NCBI GenBank assembly: GCA_964016885.1
Contig: OZ024763.1
Location: 11,718,001-11,782,000 of the forward strand
DNA length: 64,000 nt
Direction: 5' to 3'
DNA from: Eledone cirrhosa
Taxonomy: Eukaryota
Shown: positions 8,161 through 63,817 of the stretch, one piece after another
Layout: each line of letters begins with the position of its first letter
How positions within the stretch are numbered: position 1 is the first letter of the stretch
Notes under the pieces: generated by a model
Database searches by the model: none
What the model saw: the letters and a program-made list of their open reading frames with translations, nothing else
What the model was told of the DNA's origin: nothing
Made by a program: the position numbers and the translations under genes

Positions 8161-10145
8161 CAACATCAGCTCATCTACTACTACTACTGTTGCTCCTCTT
8201 CACCTCTACTACTACCACTACTACTACTACTACTAGTAGTAATAGTGGTGGGGCTGCTGTTTCCAAGACAGGCTGTGTGTGTGTGTGTGTGTGCACATAC
8301 ACACACACACATATATACATACAAACACACGCACATATATATATACATACAAACACATACATATATATATACATACAAACACATACATATATATATATAT
8401 ATATACACACTCATATATATATATATATACACACACACTCACTCATATATATATATATACACACATTATGTATATAACGCTAGCTAGACATTATTCTGGA
8501 ATAGCTCCGTTCTATTTATTTATTCATTCCACAATTCCACAACCGTTTCCATTCTTTCATTCCTTTCTCTTAACCCTCCCTTCACCTCTCTCTCACTATC
8601 TGTCCCCCTCACTATCTGTCCCCCTCACTATCTGTCCCCCTCTCTATCTGTCTCTCTCTTTATCTGTCCCCCTCTCTATCTATCTATCTCGCTCTATCTC
8701 TATCTGTCTCTCTCTATATATACCTGTCTTTCTGTCCTTCTCCCCCCCTCTCTGTTTCTCTGTCTCTGTCCTTCTCCCCCTCCCCTCTCTATCTCTGTCT
8801 CTCTGTCTCTGTCTTCTCTATCTCTGTCTCTGTCCTTCTCCCCCTCTCTCTATCTCTGTCTCTCTCTGTCCTTCTCCCCCTCTCTCTATCTCTGTCTCTC
8901 TCTGTCCTTCTCCCCCTCTCTATCTCTGTCTCTCTCTCTCCTCCTACTCCAGTGTATATATATGAGCAATAGCACCCTCTCACCACCACTCTCACTCACC
9001 CCGGGTTTCCACTCATTGCTGGCTGGCTACATAATTGTGTCTATATATACATATATGTACACACACACACACACACACACACACTAGCTATATAGTTGTC
9101 TATATATACATATATGTACACACACACACACACACACTAGCTACATAGTTGTCTATATATACATATGTACACACACACACACTAGCTACATAGTTGTGTC
9201 TATATATACATATGCACACACACACACACACACACACACTAGCTACATCATTGTGCGTGTACATACATATGCACACACACACATTTGCTTCATCCTTATG
9301 CATGTATATACATATGTGCATACACATACATACGCACACACACACACTGGCTATATCGTTGTGCGTGTATATACATATGCACACACACACACATATACAC
9401 ACATATATATATAGAGAGAGAGTTTGCATATGAATTACTGGATATTTTAAACTACACACACATCACACACGTGTACACATATTATACACACACATACGTG
9501 TGTGTGTGTCTAATTATCAATCGTAATTACATATTTATTAACTACCACCGGCGACAGATATACCAGGGTGTCTGCGTGGTTGTTGTTCCACCTGCTAGAA
9601 ATAGCAGTGACACCCTGTTACATTGTAGCCACGGCTGGAGCGCTTTTGATCATAAATCTGCATGGTCAACGTTGACCTAGGGCTAAACAGTAACAGCAAA
9701 CTATCGGGGCACTATTACCTACTAGAAATAGCAGCCAGATGTATCTGAAGTGACACCCCGCCGTATTAGAAAAAGAGGGACATTGCATATTATGTGTGAC
9801 TTGATTTGAACACACCACCACATAACTTGAAGGCAGTTTTTTGGTCGTTGCTCTACCGCTTCTACCGATGACTTTGTGCATTATTCTGGTACTCTTATTG
9901 GTTTCAGTCATTAAACCGCGGTCATGCTGGGGTACCACCCTGCAAGAATTTTATCGACCCACAGCATTTATTTTGTGTAGTCAAGCTTGTTACCTATTTT
10001 ATTGAGCTCCCTTTGTTCATACACACACATACATACACTTAGACAGAAAATAGAATCTACGCCCTGCTTACACGTATTGAGTGCTCATTCAGTTAATGTT
10101 TCAATGTTTTAAATACAATGGTATTTTAAACATCCACACTAATAC

Positions 10146-10191
<46 letters not shown>

Positions 10192-10791
10192 GGTATCCAC
10201 AGTAAGTTGTGGGGTCTATTCTGCATGAAGAACTCAATGTAACCCATATGTTGAAAATGTTGTAGGTTAAGATAAATCTCGGAAAACAATAAAACATTAA
10301 AAGGAAAACAGAGTCATGATATAAGTTAAAACTTGACTTGATTTTTTTATTTCATTGTTTTAACTTATATATATATATGAGAGAGAGAGAGAAGAGGATG
10401 GCTGTGTAGTAGCTAGTTAAGTTAGGGTTAAAAATGGAATGAGAATAAGAAGGGTGGGGGGTCCTCACCAGTTGTCTACTGGGGATTCACGGATATTTCA
10501 ACGCTTTAAAGACAATATATCTACCCCAGAGCGTTCAATAACTGGGTAAGTTATTGGGAAAACGGAGGAGGGAGAGAAGGAAAATAAAAGGTAAAAGGGG
10601 AAGAACAGAGAAAATAGCGACAAAAAACAACAAACCGAAGAATGTGCAGCAACTGAAGGCAAGAGAATCCAGGACCACAGAACTTGAAGAGCGTGTGATC
10701 GAACGAAAAGACACGACTGACCCAAGCGAGTGTAAGTGAGAAAAGGACTGCTAGAAGGTCAGCCGAGGGAAACAATGTGGTGGCAGGCAGA

Positions 10792-10817
<26 letters not shown>

Positions 10818-10822
<5 letters not shown>

Positions 10823-11253
10823 CTCGGACCGGGTGATGTGTTGTTTCCTTGAGCAAGACACTTTATTTCACATTGCTCCAGTTTACTCAGCTGTAGAAAT
10901 GAGATGATAGGACTGGGGTCCATATCATTCCATTGCAAAGTGGTCGTGGAGGTGCCACGGCAAAAAAGCACCCAGCCCACACTGTAAAGTGGTCGTGTAG
11001 GCGCCACGGCAAAAAAGCACCCAGCCCACACTGTAAAGTGGTCGTGTAGGCGCCACGGAAAAAAAAAGCACCCAGCACTCACTGTAAATGAGGTTGGTGT
11101 TAGGAAGGGCATCCAGCTGTAGAAATCAAGCCATATCAGTTCCCGTATGAGCAAGGAATGGTCAGCCGACCAGACACTGCCCACAACAGGACAACCCGTC
11201 TAACCCATGCTAGCGTGGAAGAACGGACGTAAAACGATGATGATGATGATGAT
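10818..11253 (+). mobile_element. CORE-type SINE family B, 5'-truncated, with internal triplication
   Basis: CCTTGAGCAAGACACTTT...CTCAGCTGTAGAAATG core; RTE-like tail AACCCATGCTAGCGTGGAAGAACGGACGTAAAACGATGATG. Confidence 0.85.
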
Positions 11254-11267
11254 ATATATATATAAAG

Positions 11268-11643
11268 CAAATTTAATATAGAAATGGCTTCTACAGGACT
11301 AGAACTGTTTCATTTGAAGGAAATCATCAGGATGAAACAGTTCTAGTCCTGTAGAAGCCATTTCTATATTAAATTTGTTGTTTACACTCAACTAATGTAT
11401 TGAGTACCTTACTGCGGTTACCCCCAATTGAACCCAGGACTCATACACACATACACATATGCGTGTGTGTGTGAGTCCCAGGTTCAATCGGGGGTAACCA
11501 CAGTAAGGTACTCAATACATTAGTTGAGTGTAAACAACAAATTTAATATAGAAATGGCTTCTACAGGACTAGAACTGTTTCATCCTGATAATTTCCTTCA
11601 AATGAAACAGTTCTAGTCCTGTAGAAGCCATTTCTATATTAAT
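11268..11643. mobile_element. Nested foldback element with hammerhead-core motif (Penelope pLTR-like)
   Basis: ~180-bp arms inverted around a (CA)/(TG) centre, each arm internally palindromic; CTGATGA-tttccttcaaat-GAAAC. Confidence 0.65.
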
Positions 11644-11849
11644 TCTTATATATGTATCCACTCACTGTAATTGAGGTTGGTGTTAGGAAGGGCATCCAGC
11701 TGTAGAAATCAAGCCAGAGTCAGTTCCCGTATGAGCAAGGCATGGTCAGCCGACCGGACACTGCCCACAGCAGGACAACCCGTCTAACCCATGCTAGCGT
11801 GGAAGAACGGAGTAAAACGGTGATGACGATGATGACACACAAACATACA

Positions 11850-12010
11850 CACGACAGGGTTCTGCATAGTTTCCATCTACCAAATTCCACTCACCAGGCG
11901 TTAGTCAGCCCAAGGGTATAAAAAGAAACCCAAGGTGCCACACAGTAGGACTGAACCCAGAACTGAATAGTTGTAAGCCGAGCCCCTTAACCCCTCAGCC
12001 ATATCTGCCT
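11850..12010 (-). mobile_element. Older CORE-type SINE family (also ~16455-16565, ~20870-20985, ~52640-52750; + strand ~46080-46190)
   Basis: CCAAGGTGCCACACAGTAGGACTGAACCCAGAA is the reverse complement of a B box plus CORE. Confidence 0.65.
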
Positions 12011-12645
12011 TATATTTATTTATTTTTCTAAAATTTGAATTATTTTATTTTGGTTATTGATAATTCTAATATTTATTATTGGTGCACCGTTTTAAACCTT
12101 GCCCCTGCCCCCAAATCAGATCGGTATAATCAATTTATTGATCCCCTAGAGATACTTTATTTTATTGACCCCCCCCCCCCCCCCCGGAAGGATGAAAGAC
12201 CAAATCGATTCGGGCAGTATTTGAACTGGGCTCATTGATGATAATAATAATGACAAATTCTCTATAATATAATAATGATGATATATAATTGTTATATATG
12301 TGTGTGTATGTATATAACATTATTGTGTAAAAAAAAAAGAAATTATTGTGTGTGTATATATATCATCATCGATTAACGTCCATCTTCCACGCTAGCATGG
12401 GTTAGACAGGTCCTATTTTGAGGCAAGTTGTGTCAGGTGACTGTCTCGCTCAAATAGGGGTGTTTCTGGCAGGTTTTCTACGGCTGGACGCCCTTCCTAA
12501 CGCCAACCACACACATATATAATATGTACTTTTAAAAAATTTCCTTTACTCTCTAAAAAAATTGTTTTTCCTCCCTTTTCTCCCCCCCCCCTAAAAATGT
12601 CTTTCCACCACTCCTCCACACACCCTCGAAACACTTTCTACCCAC

Positions 12646-12705
12646 TGTTCTCCCGATGAAGGGCTTATGCCCGAAACGCTCCCCCCCCACTCTCAAGCGT
12701 GAAAC
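12646..12705 (+). ncRNA. Degenerate hammerhead motif
   Basis: CCGATGA-agggcttatgccc-GAAACGCT...AGCGT: stems II and III present, core mutated. Confidence 0.4.
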
Positions 12706-12980
12706 TAATACTAATATCATTTGTACTGCCTCGCTGTTTTTCATTCTCTGTTCATTTATTAAACTATATATATATATATATATATATATCATATGTGTGT
12801 ATATAATGTATGTATGTATGTGTTTGTGTGTGTATAAGCAGTGACACTGACATAGTGTGACTTAGGATAGAGGTGTATATAAAGATATATACAATATACT
12901 TATGTATAATAAACCTATATGTCTGACTATGAATATTTAAAGCTGTGATCACATCACAGCCATCTCAGTAACCACGTGAG

Positions 12981-13030
12981 AACAACAGACACTGGTATTT
13001 CAGGATGCTTTATCCATCATCAGTAACGTT
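12981..13030 (-). ncRNA. Candidate type I hammerhead ribozyme
   Basis: Minus strand: aacgtta CTGATGA tggat aaagc atcct GAAA taccagt GTC tgttgtt. Confidence 0.35.
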
Positions 13031-13149
13031 TATTTACATGGTATTGAGACATGAATAGGCTGCAGCTTTGATACTTTTCCCATATGAAACATCTGCTGGG
13101 GATGCTCATTTGCATATAGTGTACAGCTTAAAACAAATAGCCAGAACTA

Positions 13150-14390
13150 TATATGTAGTGGTGAGGTGGTGGGGAGGTGGTGGGGAGGGTAGTAGTGGTG
13201 AGGTGGTGGGGAGGGTAGTAGTGGTGAGGTGGTGGTGTGGTATTAGTGATGTGATTGTGGTGGTCTGGTATTGGTGGTATAGGTGGTAGTAGTGGTGGTG
13301 GTGTTGATGTGATGTGGTGGTGATGGTAATGTGATGGTGTTAGTGGTGGTGATGTGATGTTGGTATTGTTGGTGTGGTATGGGTGGTAGTGGTGATGGTA
13401 TAGGTGGTGGTAGTAGTAGTGGTGGTGGTGGTGTGGTATAGGTGGTAGTGGTGGTGGTGTGGTATAGGTGGTAGTGGTGGTAGTGGTGGTGGTGGTGATG
13501 GTATAGGTGGTGGTAATGTGATGGTGTTAGTAGTGGTGGTGGTGGTGGTATAGGTGGTGGTAATGTGATGGTGTTAGTAGTAGTAGTGGTGGTGGTAATG
13601 GTGATGGTGGTAGTAGTAGTGGTGGTGGTAATGTGATGGTGTTAGTAGTAGTAGTGGTGGTAATGGTGATGGTATAGGTGGTGGTGGTAATGTGATGGTG
13701 TTAGAGGTGGTGGTGGTGGTAATGTGATGGTGTTAGTGGTGGTGGTGGTGGTGGTAATGTGATGGTGTTAGTGGTGGTGGTGGTGGTAATGTGATGGTGT
13801 TAGTGGTGGTGGTGGTGGTAATGTGATGGTGTTAGAGGTGGTGGTGGTGGTAATGTGATGGTGTTAGTGGTGGTGGTGGTGGTGGTAATGTGATGGTGTT
13901 AGTGGTGGTGGTGGTAATGTGATGGTGTTAGTGGTGGTGGTGGTGGTAATGTGATGGTGTTAGTGGTGGTGGTGGTGGTAATGTGATGGTGTTAGTGGTG
14001 GTGGTGGTGGTAATGTGATGGTGGTAATGTGGTGGTGTTAGTGGTGGTGGTGGTGGTAATGTGATGGTGTTAGTGGTGGTGGTGGTGGTAATGTGATGGT
14101 GTTAGAGGTGGTGGTGGTGGTAATGTGATGGTGTTAGTGGTGGTGGTGGTGGTGGTAATGTGATGGTGTTAGTGGTGGTGGTGGTAATGTGATGGTGTTA
14201 GTGGTGGTGGTGGTAATGTGATGGTGTTAGTGGTGGTGGTGGTGGTAATGTGATGGTGGTAATGTGGTGGTGGTGGTAATGTGATGGTGTTAGTGGTGGT
14301 GGTGGTGGTAATGTGATGGTGGTAATGTGGTGGTGTTAGTGGTGGTGGTGGTGGTAATGTGATGGTGGTAATGTGGTGGTGGTGGTGTCG
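13150..14390. repeat. GGT-rich minisatellite (GGTAATGTGATGGTGTTAGT(GGT)n)
   Basis: Tandem periodicity. Confidence 0.9.
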
Positions 14391-14459
14391 GTTGACTGAC
14401 TCTGACTTAAATCAATATAGACACACTACTTAGACCATCAATCAGTTACTTTATATCTG

Positions 14460-14940
14460 CTCTGTGTGTGTGTGTGTGCTTGTGTCCCTGTGTGTGTATC
14501 TGTGTGTATGTATGTGTGCCTATGTCCCTGTGTGTGTATCTGTATGTATGTGTGTGTGCCTGCCTATGTCCCTGTATCTGTGTATGTATGTGTGTGTGTG
14601 CCTATGTCCCTGTGTGTGTATCTGTATGTATGTGTGTGTGCCTATGTCCCTGTGTGTGTATCTGTATGTATGTGTGTATGCCTATGTCCCTGTGTGTATC
14701 TGTATTATGTATGTATGTGTGTGTGTATGTGCCTATGTCCCTGTGTGTGTATCTGTATGTATGTATGTGTGTGTGTGTGCCTGCCTATGTCCCTGTGTGT
14801 GTATCTGTATGTATGTATGTGTGTGTGTGTGCCTGCCTATGTCCCTGTGTATCTGTATGTATGTGTGTGTGCCTATGTCCCTGTGTGTGTATCTGTATGT
14901 ATGTGTGTGTGCCTATGTCCCTGTGTGTGTATCTGTATGT
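14460..14940. repeat. GCCTATGTCCCTGTGTGTGTATCTGTATG(TG)n minisatellite
   Basis: Tandem periodicity. Confidence 0.9.
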
Positions 14941-15498
14941 AAACCAACAAACCATCTGTCTGCTTATCTTAGCTCTAGATCTTGTTATCTGTGTAATGTC
15001 TGTTAGACTATTGATTTATATGGCTGTGTGTGTGTGTTGATGTATGTGTGTGTGTGTATATATATTTGAGTCTGTATGTATGTGTGTGTGTATATATATA
15101 TTTGAGTCTGTATGTATGTGTGCCTGACAATGTGTGTGTGCACGTGTCTTGACATATGTGTGCTTGTTTATATGTGTGTGTATGTGTGTGGCATTATATG
15201 TGTGCTTGTTTATACGTGTGTGTATGTGTGTGTGTGTGTATGTGGCATTATGTGTGTGCCTGTCTATATGACTATATGTTGTCCATTCAGTAGTAAAGTT
15301 CTTTCCTGTTAGACCTGCAAGGTTGATAAATTAGTTTTCACACAAACACCTTCCCACCTCTCTCTCTCCTTGTGTGTGTGTGTATACTCGTTAACTGGAG
15401 TTAGTCACTAGACTACAGCCATGCTGGAGCACTGCTTTGATTTAGTCAATCATATTGATCCCAGTATTTATTTTTTCAAGTCTATTTGACATAAACCC

Positions 15499-16250
15499 AG
15501 ACACCAAGGAAGGTGATGTCTTTGGTATAGTCTAAGACACCAAGGAAGGTGATGTCTTTGGTATAGTCTAAGACACTAGGGAAGGTGATGTCTTTGGTAT
15601 AGTTTAAGACACTAGGGAAGGTGATGTCTTTGGTATAGTTTAAGACACTAGGGAAGGTGATGTCTTTGGTATAGTCTAAGACACTAGGGAAGGTGATGTC
15701 TTTGGTATAGTTTAAGACAATAGGGAAGGTGATGTCTTTGGTATAGTTTAAGACACTAGGGAAGGTGATGTCTTTGGTATAGTTTAAGACAATAGGGAAG
15801 GTGATGTCTTTGGTATAGTTTAAGACAATAGGGAAGGTGATGTCTTTGGTATAGTTTAAGACAATAGGGAAGGTGATGTCTTTGGTATAGTTTAAGACAA
15901 TAGGGAAGGTGATGTCTTTGGTATAGTTTAAGACAATAGGGAAGGTGATGTCTTTGGTATAGTTTAAGACAATAGGGAAGGTGATGTCTTTGGTATAGTT
16001 TAAGACAATAGGGAAGGTGATGTCTTTGGTATAGTTTAAGACACCAAGGAACGTGATGTCATTGGTATAGTTTAAGACACTAGGGAAGGTGATGTCTTTG
16101 GTATAGTCTAAGACACTAAGGAAGGTGCTGTCTTTGGTATAGTCTAAGACACTAAGGAAGGTGCTGTCTTTGGTATAGTTTAAGATGCTAGGGAAGGTGA
16201 TGTCTTTGGTATAGTTTAAGATGCTAGGGAAGGTGATGTCTTTGGTATAG
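15499..16250. repeat. 36-bp minisatellite (~21 units)
   Basis: Unit AGACACTAGGGAAGGTGATGTCTTTGGTATAGTTTA. Confidence 0.95.
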
Positions 16251-16577
16251 CCTGAGAGTCTTCCTCACCCTAGGGTTGGTGCCACAATAAAATGCACTCA
16301 TTAGAATACAGGATCATGTCTGGCTCTCAGCGAACATGGAGGTCAGTGACTCCACTTGAATTCTGACCAGTCTATAATGACATGTCCAACCCTTGCATAC
16401 AAAGAAAACAGACAGCAATGGTGCTGATATATATATATATATATATATGACTGCCTTGTGCAGCAATTCCTATCTACTAAATTCCACTACAAGACATTGG
16501 TCATCTCAAGGCTATAGTAGGAGAAACTTGTCCAAGGTACTGAGCACTGAGACTGAACCCAGAATTTATATCTTAGT

Positions 16578-16772
16578 TTTAAGTTCTTCTGCGCCTTTTG
16601 GTGCATCAAGCAGTAAGTAGTCGCCAACGGTTACGATCACTGGCAGCTTTTTCGTGTCCCCGACAAGTGATGTTGGCTGCCATCAGGTCTTTTTGGAATG
16701 TTCGTCGCCAGGGGATCCTGGGGCAACCCTGCTTCTGTTTGCTGCCAGGTAGAGTCCAGTTCATCGCTGTTT
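16578..16772 (-). mobile_element. RTE-clade LINE 3' end remnant
   Basis: Minus strand translates AMNWTLPGSKQKQGCPRIPWRRTFQKDL...DRNRWR, a typical RTE C-terminus. Confidence 0.7.
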
Positions 16773-16925
16773 TTGAATTTATATATAATCAGGCTAAAAT
16801 CAATACATGTTTAGGGTCAAACTATATATAGATGTAGTATAGCCCCAACAGAGCTCCCTTCTCATTTTGACTTCCTCACGAGTTTCAAACTGGATCCTGT
16901 CTCATTCTCAACATCTACTGTGGCT

Positions 16926-17505
16926 GGGGTATATTCTAAACAGCCTCCCTGATAATTTCCCCAATTTCTGGGGTATATTCTAAACAGCCTCCCTAATAAT
17001 TTTCCTAGTTTTTGGGGTATATGCTAAAAGACTAGCTGTAATAATTTTCCCAGTTTCTGGGGTACATGCTAAAGACCCACTAATAATTTTCCCAGTTTCT
17101 GGGGTATATTCTAAACAGCCTCCCTAATAATTTTCCTAGTTTTTGGGGTATATGCTAAAAGACTAGCTGTAATAATTTTCCCAGTTTCTGGGGTATATGC
17201 TAAAGACCCACTAATAATTTTCCCAGTTTCTGGGGTATATTCTAAACAGCCTCCCTAATAATTTTCCTAGTTTTTGGGGTATATGCTAAAAGACTAGCTG
17301 TAATAATTTTCCCAGTTTCTGGGGTATATGCTAAAGACCCACTAATAATTTTCCCAATTTCTGGGGTATATTCTAAACAGCCTCCCTAATAATTTTCCTA
17401 GTTTTTGGGGTATATGCTAAAAGACTAGCTGTAATAATTTTCCCAGTTTCTGGGGTATATGCTAAAGACCCACTAATAATTTTCCCAGTTTCTGGGGTAT
17501 ATTCT
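16926..17505. repeat. Minisatellite with 131-bp trimeric higher-order unit
   Basis: GGGGTATATTCTAAACAGCC recurs at 17101, 17232 and 17363, with two variant subunits between. Confidence 0.9.
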
Positions 17506-17517
17506 GACTGTTTGCAG

Positions 17518-17606
17518 TTATCACCCTTAGAGTACTGGAAAGTTTTATTGATATCTGATATTCTTGGATATTCACACTTAGAAGAAATGGCTGACGATGG
17601 GAAATT
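17518..17606 (+). CDS. Candidate internal exon (LSPLEYWKVLLISDILGYSHLEEMADDGK)
   Basis: Acceptor ctgtttgcag, donor gtatgt, open for 29 codons plus 2 nt in unique sequence. Confidence 0.45.
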
Positions 17607-18163
17607 GTATGTATTGTCCAATATTTGATATATATGACGTAAAATGATGATGATTATATATATATATATATATATATTATCGTCATCATCATCGTTTAAC
17701 GTCTATCTTCCACGCTAGCATGGGTTAGATGGGTTTGTTGAACTTGAGGCAAGTTTGGTTGGGTGACCATGTCTCACTTGTATAGAACTGTTTCTGGCTG
17801 GGTTTCTACTGTTGGATGCCCTTCCTAGTGCCAACCACGTTTACAGTGTGGACTACTTTTTATCGTGTCTCCTACACGACCACTTTACAGTGTGGACTGG
17901 GTGCTTTTTGTCGTAATACCTACATGACCACTTTACAGTGTGGACTGGATGTCCTGTGATACCAACATAAAGGATGGTGGGAGGATGGAGTAGGGGGTGT
18001 GGGGTAGGGTGTATATTGGGTTAAGAGGTGGCTACTGACTTTAGGTTTAAGTTTGTATGTAAGGGAAGGCAGGTCTTCTGTATTACTGCATAGAGCCAAA
18101 GATTTTGATCCAGTGGCACCACTTTTAGAGTGGTGTAATTATGTAAGGTCAGTTTATATATAT

Positions 18164-18505
18164 ATCATCATCATCATCATCATCATTTTACGTCCGCTTT
18201 TCCCTGCAAGGGTGGGATGGGAACTGATTCTGGCTTGATTTCTACAGCTGGATGCCCTTCCTAACACCAACCTCATTTACAGTGAGTGCTGGGTAATTTT
18301 TTTTCTGTGGCACCTCCACGACCACTTTGCAGTGGAATGATAGGGACCCCAGTCCCTATCATCTCATTTCTACAGCTGAGTAAACTGGAGCAATGTGAAA
18401 TAAAGCGTCTTGCTCAAGGAAACAACACATCAGCCAGTCTGAGAATTGAACTCACAACCTTTCGATTGCAAGGCCAATGCTCTAACCACTAAGCCATGTG
18501 CCTCC
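18164..18505 (-). mobile_element. Full-length CORE-type SINE family B
   Basis: tRNA-like head GGAGGCACATGGCTTAGTGGTTAG...GAGTTCAATTC, CORE, (ATG)n tail. Confidence 0.9.
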
Positions 18506-18579
18506 AGCACATATATACATATATATAGATATGAAAAAGAAAATTTCGCTCTACATAGCTGAATACAATAAATGTAATG

Positions 18580-18856
18580 AGTTTTTCGAATATTAATAAT
18601 TGTTTCTACTTTTGGCACAAGGCCAGCAACTACCCAGTGTATTACTTAATAACATTCGATTCGTTTGCAATTTTGCAAACAAACCCCAATTTTATAGCCA
18701 TGTCAGTAGAATGAACCCTTCATTCTTGCTCTTATGTTGGCATGCCAACACAAGAGCAAGAATGAAGGGTTCATTCTACTGACATGGCTATAAAATTGGG
18801 GTTTGTTTGCAAAATTGCAAACGAATCGAATGTTATTATTAATATTCGGAAAACTA
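18580..18856. mobile_element. Spacer-less palindrome (foldback) with a SINE A fragment in the left arm
   Basis: Centre TTGGCATGCCAA (18737-18748); arms 18647-18742 and 18743-18838 nearly perfect. Confidence 0.8.
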
Positions 18857-18953
18857 TATATATATATTGTATTTCGAATCGGGATATTTGCCCACCCCTT
18901 GTGACTGCTCTATTTTACCATCCTGTCCAGCCAGCCGATTAACTCAATAGGAC

Positions 18954-19000
<47 letters not shown>

Positions 19001-19170
19001 GCACACATACATGGTTAACATAAGTTATGTTAGATAACATATATCATCATCATCGTTTGTGCGTGTGTGTGGTATAGTAAATAAAGATATAATTACGAAA
19101 TAAATATGACAAGGTCAATGTGTGTGTCTGTGCATGCATATATATATATATATATGTGTGTGTCTGTGCA

Positions 19171-19246
<76 letters not shown>

Positions 19247-20429
19247 ATATATCATCATCATCATCATCACTATTTTTATGTCTATTTTACTATGCTTGGC
19301 TGGGTTTAGAGGTGTTTCACACACTTCACATAGTTTACAGTGTGAACTGAGTGTATATTTGTGTCACTGGCACCAGGCAGACTGTCTACAACAGGATTAA
19401 AGGGTACTTTCTACTCTATCAGATTTTATTAGGGAGTTACACCTTGCCTAGATGGGTTGCCTGCACATGGTGGACCTTATGAAGAAAACATTTAATTTAC
19501 AGCTCACACCTATACAGATTTGGTTGGCTTCATATGCAGTTACTTCTGATAGGATGAGGTTTCTTGAGTGTTTTGATAAGGGCTCCAGCCAGTCCTATGA
19601 TGGAAAGTAATGTGAAATGGAGTGCCTTGCTCAAGATCACAACACACATATCAAACACTCTTTTATGGCATTTATGTCTCTTTTGCTTGTTCCTTCCTGT
19701 TTTGGAATGATTTTTAACAATTCAATGCCCTTCCTCTCAATAACCACTTATAGACATAAGTGGTTGTAGAAGACACACTCACACTCACATTCACATACAT
19801 GCACACACACACACATTCACATACATATACATATACTCACATACATACATACACACACACACACACATATACTCACATACACACTCACACACACACACAC
19901 TCACATACTCACTCACTCACATACTCACGTTCACTCACACATACTCACACTCACTCACACATACTCACACACACACACACACTCACATACATACACACAC
20001 TCACATACATGCACACACACTCACATACACGCACACACACACTCATACACACATTCACACTCACATACATACACACACTCACACACACTCACATTCACAC
20101 TCACATACAAACACACTCCAGACCATATATTTCTCCTTGTACATCTGTGTGTGTGTGTGTGTGTGTGTCTAACTATATAATAATAATAATTGTTTCTACT
20201 TTTGGCACAAGGCCAGCAATTACCCAGTACATTACTGGTACTTTATAATATAATAATAATAATAATAATAATAATATGGAGCAGGAACGAAGTATCAATA
20301 TAAGATCATTATGTTTATTCACACGGGACTTGTGTTTCGGGATCGATCAGCTCAAGGTCCGATCGTTGGTGAACCATCAGTAATTAAACACCAATACACA
20401 ATATATATATTTATATATACTTATACATA

Positions 20430-22055: not shown

Positions 22056-22250
22056 ATTTAATATAGGTGAGATTCTACAGGACTAGAACTGTTTCATTCT
22101 TCAGAAATCATCAGGAATTCCTGATGATTTCTGAAGAATGAAACAGTTCTAGTCCTGTAGAATCTCATCTATATTAAAACCTTTATACTCTGCAATGTAT
22201 TGAGTACCTTGCTTACTGTGGTTACCTCCGATTCAACCCGGAATAACGTA

Positions 22251-22891: not shown

Positions 22892-23818
22892 TCAGCATGT
22901 ACCCATGGGAGGTCGGGTACCCTGTATTACTGCGTGACGCCAGAAGTCACGGTCGTGTGTCATTGACTTTGAGAGGTGTAGTTGGGTAAGGTCGGCTTTT
23001 ATCACCTCATCCCAAGTCATCTTGGGTCTCCCCACTCCGCGGTTTCCATCAACTTCTAGTGCTCTGCACCTTTTTATGCAGCTGTCATCCTTCATACGCA
23101 TCACATGTCCATACCAGCGTAACCGCCTCTCCTGCACGCAGCATTTGATTCCTCTTATGCTCAGTCTCTCTCTCAATTCATTTATGCTTTGTCGTTCACG
23201 TATATTACTGTTACACATCCATCGGAGCATGCAGGCTTCGTTTCTCTCTAATCTACGTAAGTCTTCCACCTTCAGCGCCCAGGTCTCACTACCATGCAAC
23301 ATCGCTGTTCGGATACACGCATCATACAGTCTGCCTTTCATTCTGAGGGAGAAGCCTTTTGCAGCTAGCAGTGGTAGTAGTTCCCTAAACTTCTTCCATC
23401 CCGTTCTTACCCTAGTTATTGTACTTTCTGAGCACCCACCTCCGTTGCTAATTCGGTCACCTAGGTAGCAGAAGCTGTCTACTGTTTCTACAGGGCCCTC
23501 CCAGAGATTGGTGGTACTTGTTTCCTGTGGCTGTTTGCTTGCTGTTTCAGCACAGCTGCTGCATGTGAATCCTACATTCTTAATTAAGCTTCCTGAGATC
23601 CCGCTACATCTCTTGTGTACCCATTGTTTGCATTTGGGGCAAAGAATGGAGTTCCTACCTACACCTTTCCTACATACTGAGCAAGGCCATTTCCCTGAGG
23701 GGATCTGGGTTCTGTTTTCTCGTCTACTTATAAGGACCTTAGTCTTTGTCATGTTGACTTTGAGGCCCTTTCTCTCTAGTCCCTGCTTCCAGGTTTGGAA
23801 TTTATTCTCTAGTTCTAT
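22892..23818 (-). mobile_element. 5'-truncated RTE-clade LINE: open RT C-terminus containing a PHD finger
   Basis: GLKVNMTKTKV, FCYLGD, MLHGSETW, RRLRWYGHVMR, GRPKMTW; C4HC3 insert CSVC..CPKC..H..C..CSSC. Confidence 0.93.
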
Positions 23819-23828
23819 ATATTCATTT

Positions 23829-23867
<39 letters not shown>

Positions 23868-23872
<5 letters not shown>

Positions 23873-24195
23873 AAATGAAAATCCGAAGGCAAGGTAAAAT
23901 TCCAATCATTTAATCACGACACATGTTTCAATAAGAGATAGATCGATTGTGAAGCCATGATCGATTATCACTGATCTCATCAGGTGAAAATGAATTGTCT
24001 TCAAATTCTTGATATGAGGGAGAAAAAAATAACGATGTTCTCTCACAGAATTCATTCCCTCATATTCCTTCATTTTCACCTGATGAGATCAGTGATAATC
24101 GAACATGGCTTCACAATCGATCTATCTCTTATTGAAACATGTGTCGTGATTAAATGATTGGAATTCTACCTTGCCTTCGGATTTTCATTTTGATA
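23868..24195. mobile_element. Inverted-repeat element with a hammerhead motif in each arm
   Basis: Arms 23868-23994 and 24069-24195 are near-perfect reverse complements; (TA)n on the left flank. Confidence 0.75.
24071..24156 (+). ncRNA. Minimal type I hammerhead ribozyme candidate
   Basis: tcac CTGATGA(24080) ... GAAAC atgt GTC(24145) gtga; helix I tcac/gtga extended by cattt/aaatg. Confidence 0.55.
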
Positions 24196-24345
24196 CTTAT
24201 ACTCCATTTTACATCATCTAGCTGTTCCCTTGAATGGAATTGGAGATACACAAAAGCGTGGAGAACTTAACATTGCTAACATAAAGTTATTGGACCTTTT
24301 TACACAACCAATAATGCACCTTACTATATATATATATATACACAC

Positions 24346-24947: not shown

Positions 24948-25460
24948 TTTAACGCTTTAGCATTTAAACTGGCTGTATCCGGCCAGAATTCTCTCATCTC
25001 TTTCAGTTCAAACCGGCTGTAACCGGCCACTTATACTGATGTTAAGGTATTGTTCTCAAAAGGGATACTATCAAAATCTCATAGATTCGATATCATGCGA
25101 GATAAATCCTTTACCATGAAAATACAATAGTAAATATAGAGTAATCATCATCATCATCATCATTTTACATTCGCTCTTATGTAAAATTGTGAAAGATTTA
25201 AACATTTTTTTTTTTTATTTAGATAAATATAATGAAGCTTTATTTTAGAGAAACCAGGCAGGTTCAGGTAGTTTAATAACAAAATGGTTAACACTTTAGC
25301 ATTGACATTACATTTCATATACTATTATGCTTTCATGGTAAAGGCTTTACCTCATAATTATCTCACATAATATTAAATCTATGAGATTTTGATATTATTT
25401 ATTTTGAGAACAATATTTTAACATCAGTATGAGCAGCCAGTTACGTGTCTAACTGGGCTA
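24948..25460. mobile_element. Two decayed family P (TTAA) MITE copies in opposite orientation
   Basis: TTAACGCTTTAGCATTTAAA and TTAACACTTTAGCATT termini; internal homology to 44173-44604. Confidence 0.65.
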
Positions 25461-45270: not shown

Positions 45271-46304
45271 TGTTGTGAAAATTTGCAAAATTAGTGTAAA
45301 GACTTTATCATTTAATGTGATGTAGTCATAGAGTTGTTTAGTATATTCCAACAATGTCTTGCTGATATGGCATCATGTGGTTTGTTAATTCAAATGTGTA
45401 CAGTACCTTTACTAGTGAACAGATTGTTGTGAAAACTTGCAGTTTTAGACTAAAGGCTGCAATATTTAATGTAATGCAACTATAATGTTCCTTTGTACTT
45501 TTAAAGAATGTCTTGCTGATGAGGCTTCATGTGGAACAGGATGTTAAGAGTTAAATGATATTTAGGTTATTGATGATGACAATGTTTTCCCAAAACGTAT
45601 TGTTTCAAGTAGAAGATCATGAGAACATTTCAAATTTGTTCAAAGTAAATTTCTTAACCCTTTTGTGACCACATTTCTAATGAATTACACAGTCTGTGAG
45701 TTTCAATTAATTTTGAAAAAATAATCAATAATTTGGAGGGGTGGTGGGATGGATTTAACAAAATGACTGATTCCTACATTATTGGTAACTCTTAACATCC
45801 TGTACCACATGAAACCACATTAGTGAGACATTCTTGAAAAGTACAAAAGAACATTATGGTTGCATTACATTAAATATTAAAGTGTCCATGGCAGCATAGA
45901 AAATGGAATTATGATGATGATGAGAATGATGGTCGTGGTATATTACTGGTACCAGATTAATTAACTCATGCTATGTGTGGAGTAGACCTTGCTGTGAAAG
46001 ACAAAGTTGACTTCCTGGAAGGAACACATGTGGGAGGAAATATACACAAAATACACTCGCTCATAGACGTACAGACATACAGACACTGGGTTCAGTCACA
46101 CTGTATAGCTCCTTAGGCAAGTATCTTCTACTACAACCTTAGGTTGACTAATGCATTGAAAGTGGAATTTAGTAGGCAGAAACCTGGCATGTATAATTAT
46201 TTTTAATTTTTTCACCAAAATGTTTTTAAAAAAGGGTCTCAAATTTCATATAGCTTAGGGTCCCAGCAGGTGAAAGTTTAGCCCTAGTCATACAGCATTA
46301 TATA

Positions 46305-47405: not shown

Positions 47406-47426
47406 ATATCTATCTGGTATATATAT

Positions 47427-47562
47427 GTGAGTCCCAGGTTCAATCAGGGGTAACCTCAGTAAGTAAAGTACTCAAAACATTTGTAGCATGTATTCCTGAT
47501 GATTTCCTTCGAATGAAACAGTTCTAGTCCTGTAGAAGCCATTTCTATATTAAATTTGTTAT
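47427..47562. mobile_element. Rearranged copy of the hammerhead-core foldback family
   Basis: GAGTCCCAGGTTCAATC...GTACTCAA joined to CTGATGAtttccttcgaatGAAACAGTTCTAGTC. Confidence 0.65.
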
Positions 47563-47977: not shown

Positions 47978-47980
<3 letters not shown>

Positions 47981-48170
47981 GTTATTCCGAGTTGAATCGG
48001 AGGTAACCACAGTAAGTAAGGTACTCAATACATTGCAGAGTATAAAAGTTTTAATATAGATGAGATTCTACAGGACTAGAACTGTTTCATTCTTTAGAAA
48101 TCATCAGGAATCTCTGATGATTTCTAAAGAATGAAACAGTTCTAGTCCTGTAGAATCTCATCTATATTAA

Positions 48171-48172
<2 letters not shown>
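47978..48172. mobile_element. Foldback element, inverted near-identical copy of 22056-22252
   Basis: Same palindrome and GTACTCAATAC tail, between (TA)n tracts. Confidence 0.75.
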
Positions 48173-48207
<35 letters not shown>

Positions 48208-52774: not shown

Positions 52775-53120
52775 GGAGGCACATGGCTTAGTGGTTAGAG
52801 CATTGGCCTTGCAATCGAAAGGTTGTGAGTTGTGAGTTCAATTCTCAGACTGGGTGATGTGTTGTTTCCTTAAGCAAGACACTTTATTTCACATTGCTCC
52901 AGTTTACTCAGCTGTAGAAATGAGATGATAGGGACTGGGGTCCCTATCATTCCACTGCAAAGTGGTCGTGGAGGTGCCACAGCAAAAAAGCACCCAGCAC
53001 TCACTGTAAATGAGGTTGGCGTTAGGAAGGGCATCCAGCTGTAGAAATCAAGCCAAAATCAGTTCCCGTCCCACCCTTGCAAGCAGGGAAAAGCGGACGT
53101 AAAATGATGATGATGATGAT
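52775..53120 (+). mobile_element. Full-length CORE-type SINE family B
   Basis: A box TGGCTTAGTGG, B box GAGTTCAATTC, CORE, tail GCGGACGTAAAATGATGATG. Confidence 0.92.
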
Positions 53121-53686
53121 AAATGCTATTGAAATGCTGGGTAAATATTCTATAGCTGTTGATCGCGAATAGATGGCTGTCGTTTATTTATCTATTATTT
53201 CTTCATAGATGCCTTTTAATCTTATAGCCTGGTTTAATTGGTTTTTGTGTGGTTGATTATGCTGATTGGGAGAGGAAATGGTGGATATATTTTATCAAAT
53301 ATGGACATAATTTATAGTATATATATATATACACACACACATTATATTAATAAATGGAAACTATATTTATAAAACCTTAATTTTATTATATATATTTCAA
53401 GGCAAATTTTGGTGCGCTTTCAACAGATAAAATACAAAATTTGTTTTATAAATGTTGACATACTCGCAGAAGAACAACCTTGACGGTTGGAGGTTCGCTG
53501 GATATTATATATATATATATATATATAGATATAGATATATATATATATAAGCAAAAGGATATTTAGTTTGTTGGTAATTCAACAAATATATATATATTTA
53601 TAACAGATTCGAAGCACCAGACAGGTTTTCTGGAGTATAATATCAATGATATTAATAAATGGAAACAATATTTATAAAACCATATT

Positions 53687-53747
53687 TATTCTATTATATA
53701 TATTTCAAGGGTACCAAAACTTTGGTACGCTCTCATCAGATAAAATA
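53687..53747 (-). ncRNA. Minimal type I hammerhead ribozyme candidate (mirror copy)
   Basis: Minus strand: tattttat CTGATGA gagc gtaccaaa gt tttggtac cctt GAAA tatat ATA atagaata. Confidence 0.65.
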
Positions 53748-53873
53748 CAAAGTTTGTTTTATAAATATGACATATCCAGGAATGATACCTTAATGAGACC
53801 TGACTATCCAGGTAAAACTTGAACCGTTAAGGTCTCATCCCTGGATATGTCAATATTTATAAAACAAACTTTG

Positions 53874-53934
53874 TATTTTATCTGATGAGTGCGTACCAAA
53901 GTTTTGGTACCCTTGAAATATATATAATAGAATA
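53874..53934 (+). ncRNA. Minimal type I hammerhead ribozyme candidate
   Basis: Helix I TATTTTAT/ATAGAATA (8 bp, 1 GU), CTGATGA at 53882, 8-bp helix II core, GAAA at 53915, 2-bp helix III, ATA triplet ending at 53926. Confidence 0.65.
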
Positions 53935-54529
53935 AATATGGTTTTATAAATATAGTTTCCATTTATTAATATCACTTATATATATATCATCATCATCATC
54001 ATCATCGTTTAACGTCTATGTTCCACGCTTGCATGGGTTTGAATGAGGGGTACATGAGTCCAGACACTAATTGACACATAGCCCTTTGCTCCAGAAAATG
54101 TAAACATGGTGGCTGGGTAAGACTCTTTAGGAACTTACATGTCTACCGGGCACAGACAGAAAGACGTGCTTTTCTGCCTGCAGCATATCACAAAATCAAA
54201 TTTCATGTGAAGATACTGTTCTCATAACAACAACAAATGCATGAATTACATCTTGTTTTGCAGAACTGTTGAAATAATTATTATGAATAAACGATTTATG
54301 TAACATCAGCATCTTTCTTAATGTTATTCTTTTATATATATACACTTGCACCTCTCTAAGACAATGTCTCTAGACTGAGATCTTTGGCACTACGCAGTAA
54401 TACAGAAGACCCGCCTTGCCTATGTACAAAGCGAAACATAGTCAGTAGGCACCTCTTAACCAAATATACACCCCAATCCACTACCCTATCCTCCCACTAC
54501 CACCAACAGCACGAGATAATGAGATCGAG

Positions 54530-55065: not shown

Positions 55066-55318
55066 TAAATTTAAATATTTTTGAAACCCATACAATGCAT
55101 TAGAAAATTAAAGGTGCTAAGATAACAATAGAATCTTACCTTAGCAAATTTCGATCGATTCTTTAAGACCTGCACAAGGACACTCCCTTGATAGTGGATT
55201 TTTAAAACCGAAAACATTTGGGATTATTAAATTTACTAAAGTAAGTAAGATACTATTGTTATCTTGGCACCTTTAATTTCCTAATGCATTGTATGGTTTT
55301 CAAAATTATTTAAATTTA
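55066..55318. mobile_element. Foldback with ~75-bp imperfect inverted arms
   Basis: CATACAATGCATTAG..AATTAAAGGTGC.AAGATAACAATAG and its reverse complement at 55253-55295. Confidence 0.65.
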
Positions 55319-62094: not shown

Positions 62095-63510
62095 TTATTA
62101 TTATTTGCTCTATTGCCCTGTTGCTGGGTTCAGGCATTCAACCTAAGGCAATAGATTTCCTTGTAGAGAGAGCGAGCTTATCTGAGAATGTGTGTTGTTC
62201 CTAGTAACCAAGGTACAGCTCTGATGATTTGGGTATCATCATCATCATCATCATCATCATCGTTTAACGTCCATTTTCCACGCTAGCATGGGTCTAAACT
62301 ATAATAAAGTAAGGAGTGTGGGACTGCGTCCAGAATATAATTTTTTATCCTGTTTGTAAAATAAGTTGGATTACTTTGAATAAATAATGAATGAATATTA
62401 CATAATTTATCTACTAAATTTAGTTATTCTTGATTAAATATAAATAATTTTGTTGCTTATTTTAAGATTCACTTCTTTAAAATTTTCAAATGTCAACACT
62501 TCCGGTTAGCGATCGCTTAAATAAACATTCATATATTTCCGTCACTAATTTTCTCCTAATGCAGTTTATATATAATATCATCTTTTTTTAATGTATCATG
62601 GATTACGTTACTGATTACATAAGACAGTGTAACGACACAGTCTTTGCTCAATTTCTGTGTATATTATCAATTACGAATTTATTTGATCATATCTACATGT
62701 AAATATATATACTTGTGTATAATATCAATATACACACTACACATGCTAGCAGAAAAACCACCCAAAGTGTGGCTTTTCTGCTAGTTAATCCTAATGCTCC
62801 TACCACAGGGATAATGTTTGTGGTCATCCTCCACATGTAGTTGATCTCTAATCCAAGTCTTTGTATTTGACAGTTTCTCCATTGTTTTTACAGATATAAT
62901 CTTGCCAGCTGGTACAGCAATATCTATCAGGCTACATGTTCTATCTGTTTGTGATTTATGATGATATCTGGTGTATTGGCAGATATTTCTCGGTTATCAC
63001 AAGCATATTATCCAGAATGAATATATTGCCATTTTCCATGACTGTTTTTGGTTGATGTTCATACTGTTTGTAGGAGGTTTGGATATCATGAAAACAGTAG
63101 AGCATCCAGTGCACATATTTGGCAATGCAGTTATGTCTTTTTATATAATCAGTTTGTGCCAGCTCTTGACATCCAGAGATAACATGATCTACCGTTTCTT
63201 CATATTTGTAGCATATTCTGCATAGAGGGCTATTCCCATCTTTCACTATTCTGTGTCTATAGGCTTGAGTGTTTAGAAATTGGTCTTGTGCAGCTACTAA
63301 GATACCATCCATCTCTGTTTCAGACCAGCACTTCTGAGTTAAGCTAGTGGGCCACGCTGATCATTGTCAGAAAAGAGCTCTGGGAATCTACCATGTAGTG
63401 CTTTTGCTTTGGTTTAATTTCTCTGTTTGAAGTTTCTTTGCTGTGATCTTCACAATCTTAGCTAACTGTACATCACTCTGGTGTTGATCTTTCCTTCCCC
63501 CCAAAATTAC
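62095..63510 (-). mobile_element. Decayed R4/Dong-like RLE non-LTR retrotransposon 3' part, interrupted at ~62235-62785
   Basis: LHGRF, AAQDQ.L.T, CRIC..ETVDHVISGC (CCHC), RHN, PDII..IDIAVP, KYKDL, GALG, LLGTTHILR, (AAT)n tail. Confidence 0.85.
62293..62784 (+). mobile_element. Non-autonomous Helitron-like insertion
   Basis: 5' TCTAAACTATAATAAAG; 3' hairpin CTAGCAGAAAA..TTTTCTGCTAG ending CTAG|T. Confidence 0.55.
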
Positions 63511-63516
63511 TGGCAT

Positions 63517-63817
63517 GGAGGCACATGGCTTAGTGGTTAGAGCATTGGCCTTGCAATCGAAAGGTTGTGAGTTCAATTCTCAGACTGGGTGATGTGTTGT
63601 TTCCTTGAGCAAGACACTTTATTTCACATTGCTCCAGTTTACTCAGCTGTAGAAATGAGATGATAGGGACTGGGGTCCCTATCATTCCAATGCAAAAGTG
63701 GTCGTGGAGGTGCCACGGCAAAAGGGCATCCAGCTGTAGAAATCAAGCCAGAATCAGTTCCCGTCCCACCCTTGCAAGCAGGGAAAAGCGGACGTAAAAT
63801 GAAATGATGATGATGAT
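63517..63817 (+). mobile_element. CORE-type SINE family B with internal deletion
   Basis: Head, CORE and tail nearly identical to 52775-53120. Confidence 0.9.

Follow-up and report, generated by a model that had tools for sequence, protein, structure and literature searches.

Mirror-image hammerhead motifs in an Eledone cirrhosa fold-back that probably marks a Penelope-like retrotransposon insertion

The analysed window, a 64,000-nucleotide stretch of Eledone cirrhosa DNA (assembly GCA_964016885.1, contig OZ024763.1, positions 11,718,001 to 11,782,000 of the forward strand), contains a head-to-head pair of repeat ends, which is probably the remnant of one insertion by an endonuclease-bearing (EN+) Penelope-like element (PLE) retrotransposon at a TA-rich site. 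The putative assignment to PLEs is purely an argument from architecture. Both of the mirror-image hammerhead motifs carried by the pair are confirmed as real, and the locus contributes a further family of hammerheads to retroelement debris of a known class. From predicted folding, the hammerhead at this locus is probably silent, and a hammerhead on both strands of a PLE scar does not mean two working ribozymes.

The two arms lie head-to-head at 53647-53768 and 53853-53974, are identical at 120 of 122 positions, and share approximately 25 nt of further homology inward, in agreement with the inverted arms of approximately 150 bp that an initial annotation of this DNA had described. The left, long arm (53647-53793, - strand) is an inverted, 5'-truncated copy of the terminal repeat with its 5' end 54 nt upstream of core residue C3, and the right, short arm (53801-53974, + strand) starts approximately 81 nt upstream of C3, has no tail, and stops 2 nt short of a (TA)n run (53977-53986). 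A tail is present on the left arm only (53598-53646, - strand); it measures 49 nt to the first TA run and may reach approximately 70-85 nt, as family reads run on to about 53562-53576, and a contig from sequencing run X1 that spans 53562-53696 carries it. Where the two 5' ends meet, the junction (53794-53800) is composed of short reiterated pieces of the 5' part of the right arm, and the 5' start of the right arm forms a hairpin (53801-53852, + strand) with predicted energies of -18.4 kcal/mol as RNA and -9.0 kcal/mol as DNA. The surrounding window is animal-type DNA rich in microsatellites, TA runs flank both ends of the fold-back, and any target-site duplication is unreadable; the (TA)n run adjoining the 3' end of the right arm and a (TA)n/(TAGA) microsatellite (53504-53549) between the tail and a third copy of the repeat are the likely targets.

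Each arm contains an intact type I core together with a helix I of 8 bp and a palindromic helix III of 2 bp, located on opposite strands as the initial annotation had proposed. The right-arm hammerhead (53874-53934, + strand) consists of the helix I 5' strand (53874-53881), CTGATGA (53882-53888), GAAA (53915-53918), an AUA triplet (53924-53926) and the helix I 3' strand (53927-53934), and the same annotation's reading of it as a minimal, dimer-type hammerhead of the Penelope-like kind, with a predicted cut after 53926, is consistent with the sequence. The left-arm hammerhead (53687-53747, - strand) is the better copy of the pair and consists of helix I (53747-53740/53694-53687), CTGATGA (53739-53733), GAAA (53706-53703) and AUA (53697-53695), with a predicted cut after 53695. 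The CUGANGA core, GAAA, an NUH triplet and three helices in type I order are all present. The short palindromic helix III would allow dimer formation through ATATATAT (53918-53925), whose self-duplex has a predicted energy of -3.2 kcal/mol. Helix II has three pairs at its base, followed by a C-C mismatch and then by a stem of 7 bp capped with a 4-nt loop; the 8-bp stem originally described would leave a loop of just 2 nt and is not upheld. The closing pair 10.1-11.1, previously given as G-C, is G-U (A-U in some reads), and no extra base follows A9. The basal part of helix II in the right arm also contains a U-U mismatch (53890/53913), which is why a strict descriptor scan missed that arm; position 53890 is A in 1191 of 1432 family reads from run X12.

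As a control for chance, the hammerhead descriptor scan was run on 40 locally dinucleotide-shuffled windows, which gave a mean of 0.1 hits with a helix I of at least 4 bp and none with a helix I of at least 8 bp (n=40). The real window gives three hits with the strict descriptor and four with a relaxed one, the added hit being the right arm. An Rfam search detected no hammerhead at gathering score in the whole window, nor at E<=5 in its 52-56 kb portion. A pattern scan of metagenome_contigs gave no matches, and scans of viral_contigs gave none and then four, all of which were dismissed as chance matches without helices I and II.

The motifs resemble the metazoan PLE hammerheads described in part of PMC4209133 in having a CUGANGA/GAAA core, a long helix II and a helix III that is tiny and palindromic, and in occurring as pairs on opposite strands; in Schistosoma, minimal hammerheads lie 100-700 bp apart on opposite strands, and the Drosophila-type hammerhead has a similar U-AU-AU helix III. 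They differ from the material in that source in the length of helix I, which is 8 bp here and 4-5 bp in the Schistosoma consensus, in the C-C mismatch kept in helix II, and in lacking two features of the PLE consensus, an additional unpaired base following A9 and a G10.1-C11.1 pair. Within the same part of PMC4209133, G-U is found at 10.1-11.1 in hammerheads of the limpet Lottia, and hammerheads of Marsupenaeus and Saccoglossus(2) have no extra base after A9. No cutting was seen with single minimal motifs, and cutting by dimers was weak (PMC4209133, in part). The repeat family is absent from the examined portion of the hammerhead alignment in PMC4209133, and a literature search that covered few subscription papers returned no cephalopod or octopus hammerhead report on this family and nothing on a G10.1/U11.1 hammerhead pair.

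PLE insertions take the form of such a fold-back by default, according to the available parts of PMC8557442 and PMC3846280. EN+ PLE insertions have an inverted, 5'-truncated copy, a tail of 30-40 bp on one end, and a (TA)n bias that hides target-site duplications (PMC8557442, in part), and head-to-head PLE repeats carry palindromes at their junctions (PMC3846280, in part). The locus matches these units in its head-to-head truncated copy beside a terminal repeat, its tail of 49 nt or more on one end only, its junction palindrome and its likely (TA)n targets, and differs from them, as they appear in those parts of the two sources, in having no coding frame and a tail of at least 49 nt instead of 30-40 bp.

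A probable course of insertion can be modelled on PAc (Poseidon, Anolis carolinensis), for which the available part of PMC11167929 reports that AT-rich sites are nicked on both strands of the DNA, that reverse transcription starts at two internal sites with the tail representing the gap between them, and that uncut RNA is the main template, the hammerhead cutting only with protein and being dispensable in vitro. By analogy, a PLE nuclease would have nicked both strands of AT-rich DNA, and reverse transcription would have begun at two internal sites of the RNA, giving one tailed and one tail-less arm. Each cDNA would then have halted at a point 54-81 nt 5' of the core, followed by joining of the two 5' ends. 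The template was likely uncut RNA, because the arms contain sequence from either side of the cut; both sides could also have come from a tandem or circular template, which is allowed for under the non-autonomous alternative considered below. The hammerhead of the parent element would likely cut only as a dimer through the palindrome in helix III, or with the help of protein. The element had been described as ribozyme-processed, a description that is not supported, as all three arms begin 54-81 nt upstream of the core with both sides of the cut site copied.

Features that stand against a PLE origin include the absence of a linked reverse transcriptase (RT) or GIY-YIG frame in the window, tails longer than 30-40 bp, the unreadable target-site duplication, and the deviations from the PLE consensus. 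None of the 115 complex frames of at least 55 aa in the window (repetitive frames filtered out) matched RT or GIY-YIG Pfam families, and longer copies joined to a PLE RT/GIY-YIG ORF, envisaged in the initial annotation, are not found in the window; short end fragments would not carry such a frame. The tail was considered as the N-terminus of a PLE protein, a reading that is not supported: the frame opening at the core ATG runs into a stop at codon 17. The terminal repeat of PAc, by comparison, overlaps the start of its ORF (PMC11167929, in part), whereas the 40 codons that follow the stop here have no convincing homologue, the one weak match (E 4.7e-4) of this 40-aa frame being to a repetitive protein.

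The third copy of the repeat (53341-53503, - strand) is separate, more diverged and tail-less, lies between microsatellites, and starts 77 nt upstream of C3. The initial annotation had recognised its dead core, CTGTTGA, which is placed here at 53426-53420 and is accompanied by a 5-nt deletion in helix II, but had confined the arm to 53344-53460, and the arm is longer. Its identity is 85.8% over 127 columns, compared with 120 of 122 positions between the left and right arms, suggesting that the pair arose in one event and the third copy in another. Compared with the right arm, the third copy differs at 1 of 13 core positions and 37 of 156 other positions, and an alignment of the three window copies contains no compensatory pairs. 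The core change is private to this copy, as 472 of 486 X12 reads at that site carry the intact core A.

The 5' ends of the right and third arms are no more than approximately 4 nt apart, a spacing also compatible with a short element whose 5' end is fixed, and it is possible, though unlikely, that the repeat is a short non-autonomous PLE derivative of approximately 230-260 nt, akin to a retrozyme or a solo terminal repeat and mobilised in trans. Such an element would insert by the same chemistry as proposed for a PLE, with no coding parent possessing this exact end. Besides the near-coincidence of the two arm starts, this explanation draws on the lack of a linked coding frame in the window and on sequencing reads from the family, where 5 of the 15 joints listed, of 34 in all, end at 53801-53805. 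The joint cluster may however be an artefact, the window holding no family sequence upstream of 53801, and a fixed 5' end would also be expected from cDNA run-off at the transcription start of a coding element. Animal non-LTR retrozymes are likewise short, non-coding, PLE-related and equipped with a type I hammerhead (PMC7229834, in part), and according to a 2026 preprint, retrozymes originate from the terminal repeats of PLEs (bioRxiv 10.64898/2026.07.22.740005, in part). The left and third copies are arranged head-to-tail 313 nt apart, inside the 150-450 bp range of retrozyme units (PMC7229834, in part). Retrozymes, however, are defined in the available parts of these sources as tandem, head-to-tail arrays, and they give circular RNAs (PMC7229834; bioRxiv 10.64898/2026.07.22.740005), whereas the principal feature here is an inverted pair. 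The sole same-strand pair in the window is split by a microsatellite and is about 85% identical, with a predicted probability of about 0.004 for helix III of the left-third dimer. A retrozyme array at this locus was rejected, as the locus contains only the inverted pair and a diverged, core-mutated third copy, and a half-active dimer of the left and third copies was also rejected, at a predicted probability of <=0.015. Insertion by a coding PLE remains the preferred explanation.

The initial annotation had further held that the element yields a hammerhead whichever strand is transcribed, and an active ribozyme from either strand is not supported by folding predictions. On either strand the whole element is predicted to fold into a single hairpin (about -234 kcal/mol) that hides the ribozyme. 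The arms are head-to-head, and read-through RNA of either strand therefore makes the antisense arm first; the predicted silence of the locus follows from the approximately 150-bp duplex that such RNA would form. For + strand transcripts starting at 53400, 53600 or 53700, the predicted pairing probability of helices I and II rounds to 0, even when the RNA ends just past helix I. Starts at 53770 or 53801 give predicted probabilities of 0.999 for helix II and 0.003 for helix I, and a whole arm folded alone gives about 0.2 for helix I. Only a transcript starting inside the central gap is predicted to free one arm.

These predictions bear directly on the idea of a purpose-built fold-back element that processes its own RNA with a hammerhead active from either strand, which we consider very improbable. 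Both cores are intact and the helix variants of the family mostly keep pairing, as such an element would require, and yet the intact cores can be attributed to the youth of the pair, which has 2 differences in 122 positions. Against a purpose-built unit stand the helix I and II probabilities, which round to 0 in + strand transcripts whose start is at 53700 or to its left, the inclusion in the copies of sequence upstream of the cut site, and an inversion point that varies between copies, with left sides at 53586-53761 among the listed joints, so that the fold-back is not a fixed unit.

Part of the stretch is present in 10 sequencing runs from 6 studies, the best of which may be the window's own source. 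The family was surveyed by comparing 4 of 14 runs with the stretch at a likeness of at least 80%, many of the records fitting in part only, and is high-copy, with matches to 7992 contigs in X1 and 27,504 reads in X12, a RAD/reduced-representation library whose read counts may stem from few loci. Seven contigs in each of X4 and X6, which come from other organisms, also match. Among the listed helix variants, which as a small number of consensus strings from the reduced-representation library do not amount to a covariation test, pairing is mostly preserved: in helix I, 53930 G>A changes G-U to A-U and 53929 A>G changes A-U to G-U; 53889 G>A changes G-U to A-U; and 53922 A>G keeps the dimer helix III through a G-U pair. 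No core variants of the left or right arm occur among the 40 of 142 rows listed, where only approximately one would be expected in the right-arm core.

A loose end from a related subfamily, AGGCATAACATATTTTTAATATGATATCCC (5320 reads), has, as we read it, three double-sided changes, one single-sided change and one broken pair in helix II and retains the C-C mismatch, and another loose end has CTGATGA followed by the same AGG base. At 53905-53960, X12 also contains a far deeper related subfamily (10,000-20,000 reads, probably from few loci), in which helix II is longer and its pairing differs, and a similar loose end occurs in X6, from another organism. At 53700, 223 X12 reads leave the arm at the ATATAT loop and enter a different sequence, possibly an insertion into the palindromic loop; the sequence reached is one that we take to resemble a Helitron-type end. 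Piled read ends at 53405, 53441 and 53576 were rejected as ends of the element, as they fall on AATT in a RAD library and are presumably restriction ends; those at 53567 and 53766 are not accounted for by AATT.

Two further hammerhead families with the same build are present in the window, one at 23.86-24.33 kb and the other as four insertions at approximately 11.3, 22.1, 47.5 and 48.1 kb. The second family is a fold-back (23862-24325) with CTGATGA at 24080 (+ strand) and 23983 (- strand), an ACATGT helix III palindrome, a GUC triplet, a 4-bp helix I and a G-U closing pair. Its arms are 97% alike over 133 nt, its left end meets (TA)n, and its right end bears a tail of up to 129 nt (single copy). 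The third family (11258-11657, 22057-22250, 47420-47560 and 47978-48175) has a CTGATGA core, a weak 3-bp helix II with a basal U-U, a 4-bp helix III and a GUA triplet; its arms pivot within approximately 10 nt of the core, its tails are 68-74 nt long, and the copy at 11.3 kb in turn forms, by duplication, a larger inverted repeat of 194 nt. Across the three families, all five two-armed insertions measured have a short arm ending at or within approximately 2 nt of (TA)n and a long arm with a tail; the 47.5-kb insertion was left out of this count, its second arm being a tail fragment only. Similarity between the families is limited to the core and a short tail motif.

The recurrence of a hammerhead core at the equivalent place in three otherwise unrelated families argues against a DNA fold-back transposon, such as a MITE, with terminal inverted repeats that contain a hammerhead-like string by chance, an explanation we regard as the most improbable of those considered. 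It would account for the long, near-perfect inverted arms, the small size and the TA flanks, and is at odds with the asymmetric ends, of which only one is tailed, with the occurrence of a single arm on its own in the third copy, with a centre built of arm sequence, and with the variable inversion points and solo arms that the family reads suggest.

The tail motif, TTAYACTC, is present at the tail start of all three families (window positions 53633, 24197, 11382, 11526, 22183 and 48038). At the principal locus it takes the form TTATACTC (53633-53640, - strand), 6 nt beyond the endpoint of the short arm, and in five insertions the distances beyond the short-arm end are 6, 1, 4, 4 and 5 nt. It is not enriched across the window, where 8 matches were found and 7.47 expected, and its position alone is notable: 6 of the 8 matches sit in hammerhead-family tails. 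The chance of finding it within 7 given positions is approximately 4e-4 per family against the window background. Families 1 and 2 served to choose the motif, and the degenerate base was introduced once family 3 had been seen, so that only family 3 provides a partly independent test. Family 1 has a tail of at least 49 nt, those of family 3 measure 68-74 nt, and the one of family 2 provisionally up to 129 nt, compared with the published 30-40 bp, which they exceed by a factor of up to two or three, and these lengths, together with a motif adjoining the short-arm end, are possibly a new detail. Tentatively, and with considerable doubt, TTAYACTC may be a signal for internal RT initiation, 1-6 nt 3' of the inner start, and perhaps one RT mobilised three short non-autonomous families; distant common ancestry would also explain the sharing of the motif. 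In PAc, internal initiation involves an AC-rich stem-loop, described for that single element (PMC11167929, in part). If the placement of TTAYACTC holds genome-wide, it would offer a testable cis-signal for internal initiation by Penelope-like RTs.

Several other features were observed in the window. A 325-aa open frame (22892-23869, - strand) with a PHD finger (Pfam E 9.5e-7) abuts the (TA)n beside the second fold-back, and the sequence following the PHD finger appears to resemble the C-terminal portion of a non-LTR reverse transcriptase of the RTE type. A 134-aa frame (62956-63360, - strand) that matches zf-RVT weakly and below cutoff (E 0.0087) is likely the 3' part of a non-LTR element. Long inverted repeats that contain no hammerhead core are found at 18647-18838, 25019-25444, 45461-45878 and 55066-55318, the first of which is a 96-nt palindrome with no spacer that adjoins a TA run. 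The tRNA-like heads of SINE-type repeats lie at 18431-18503, 52782-52852 and 63524-63587.
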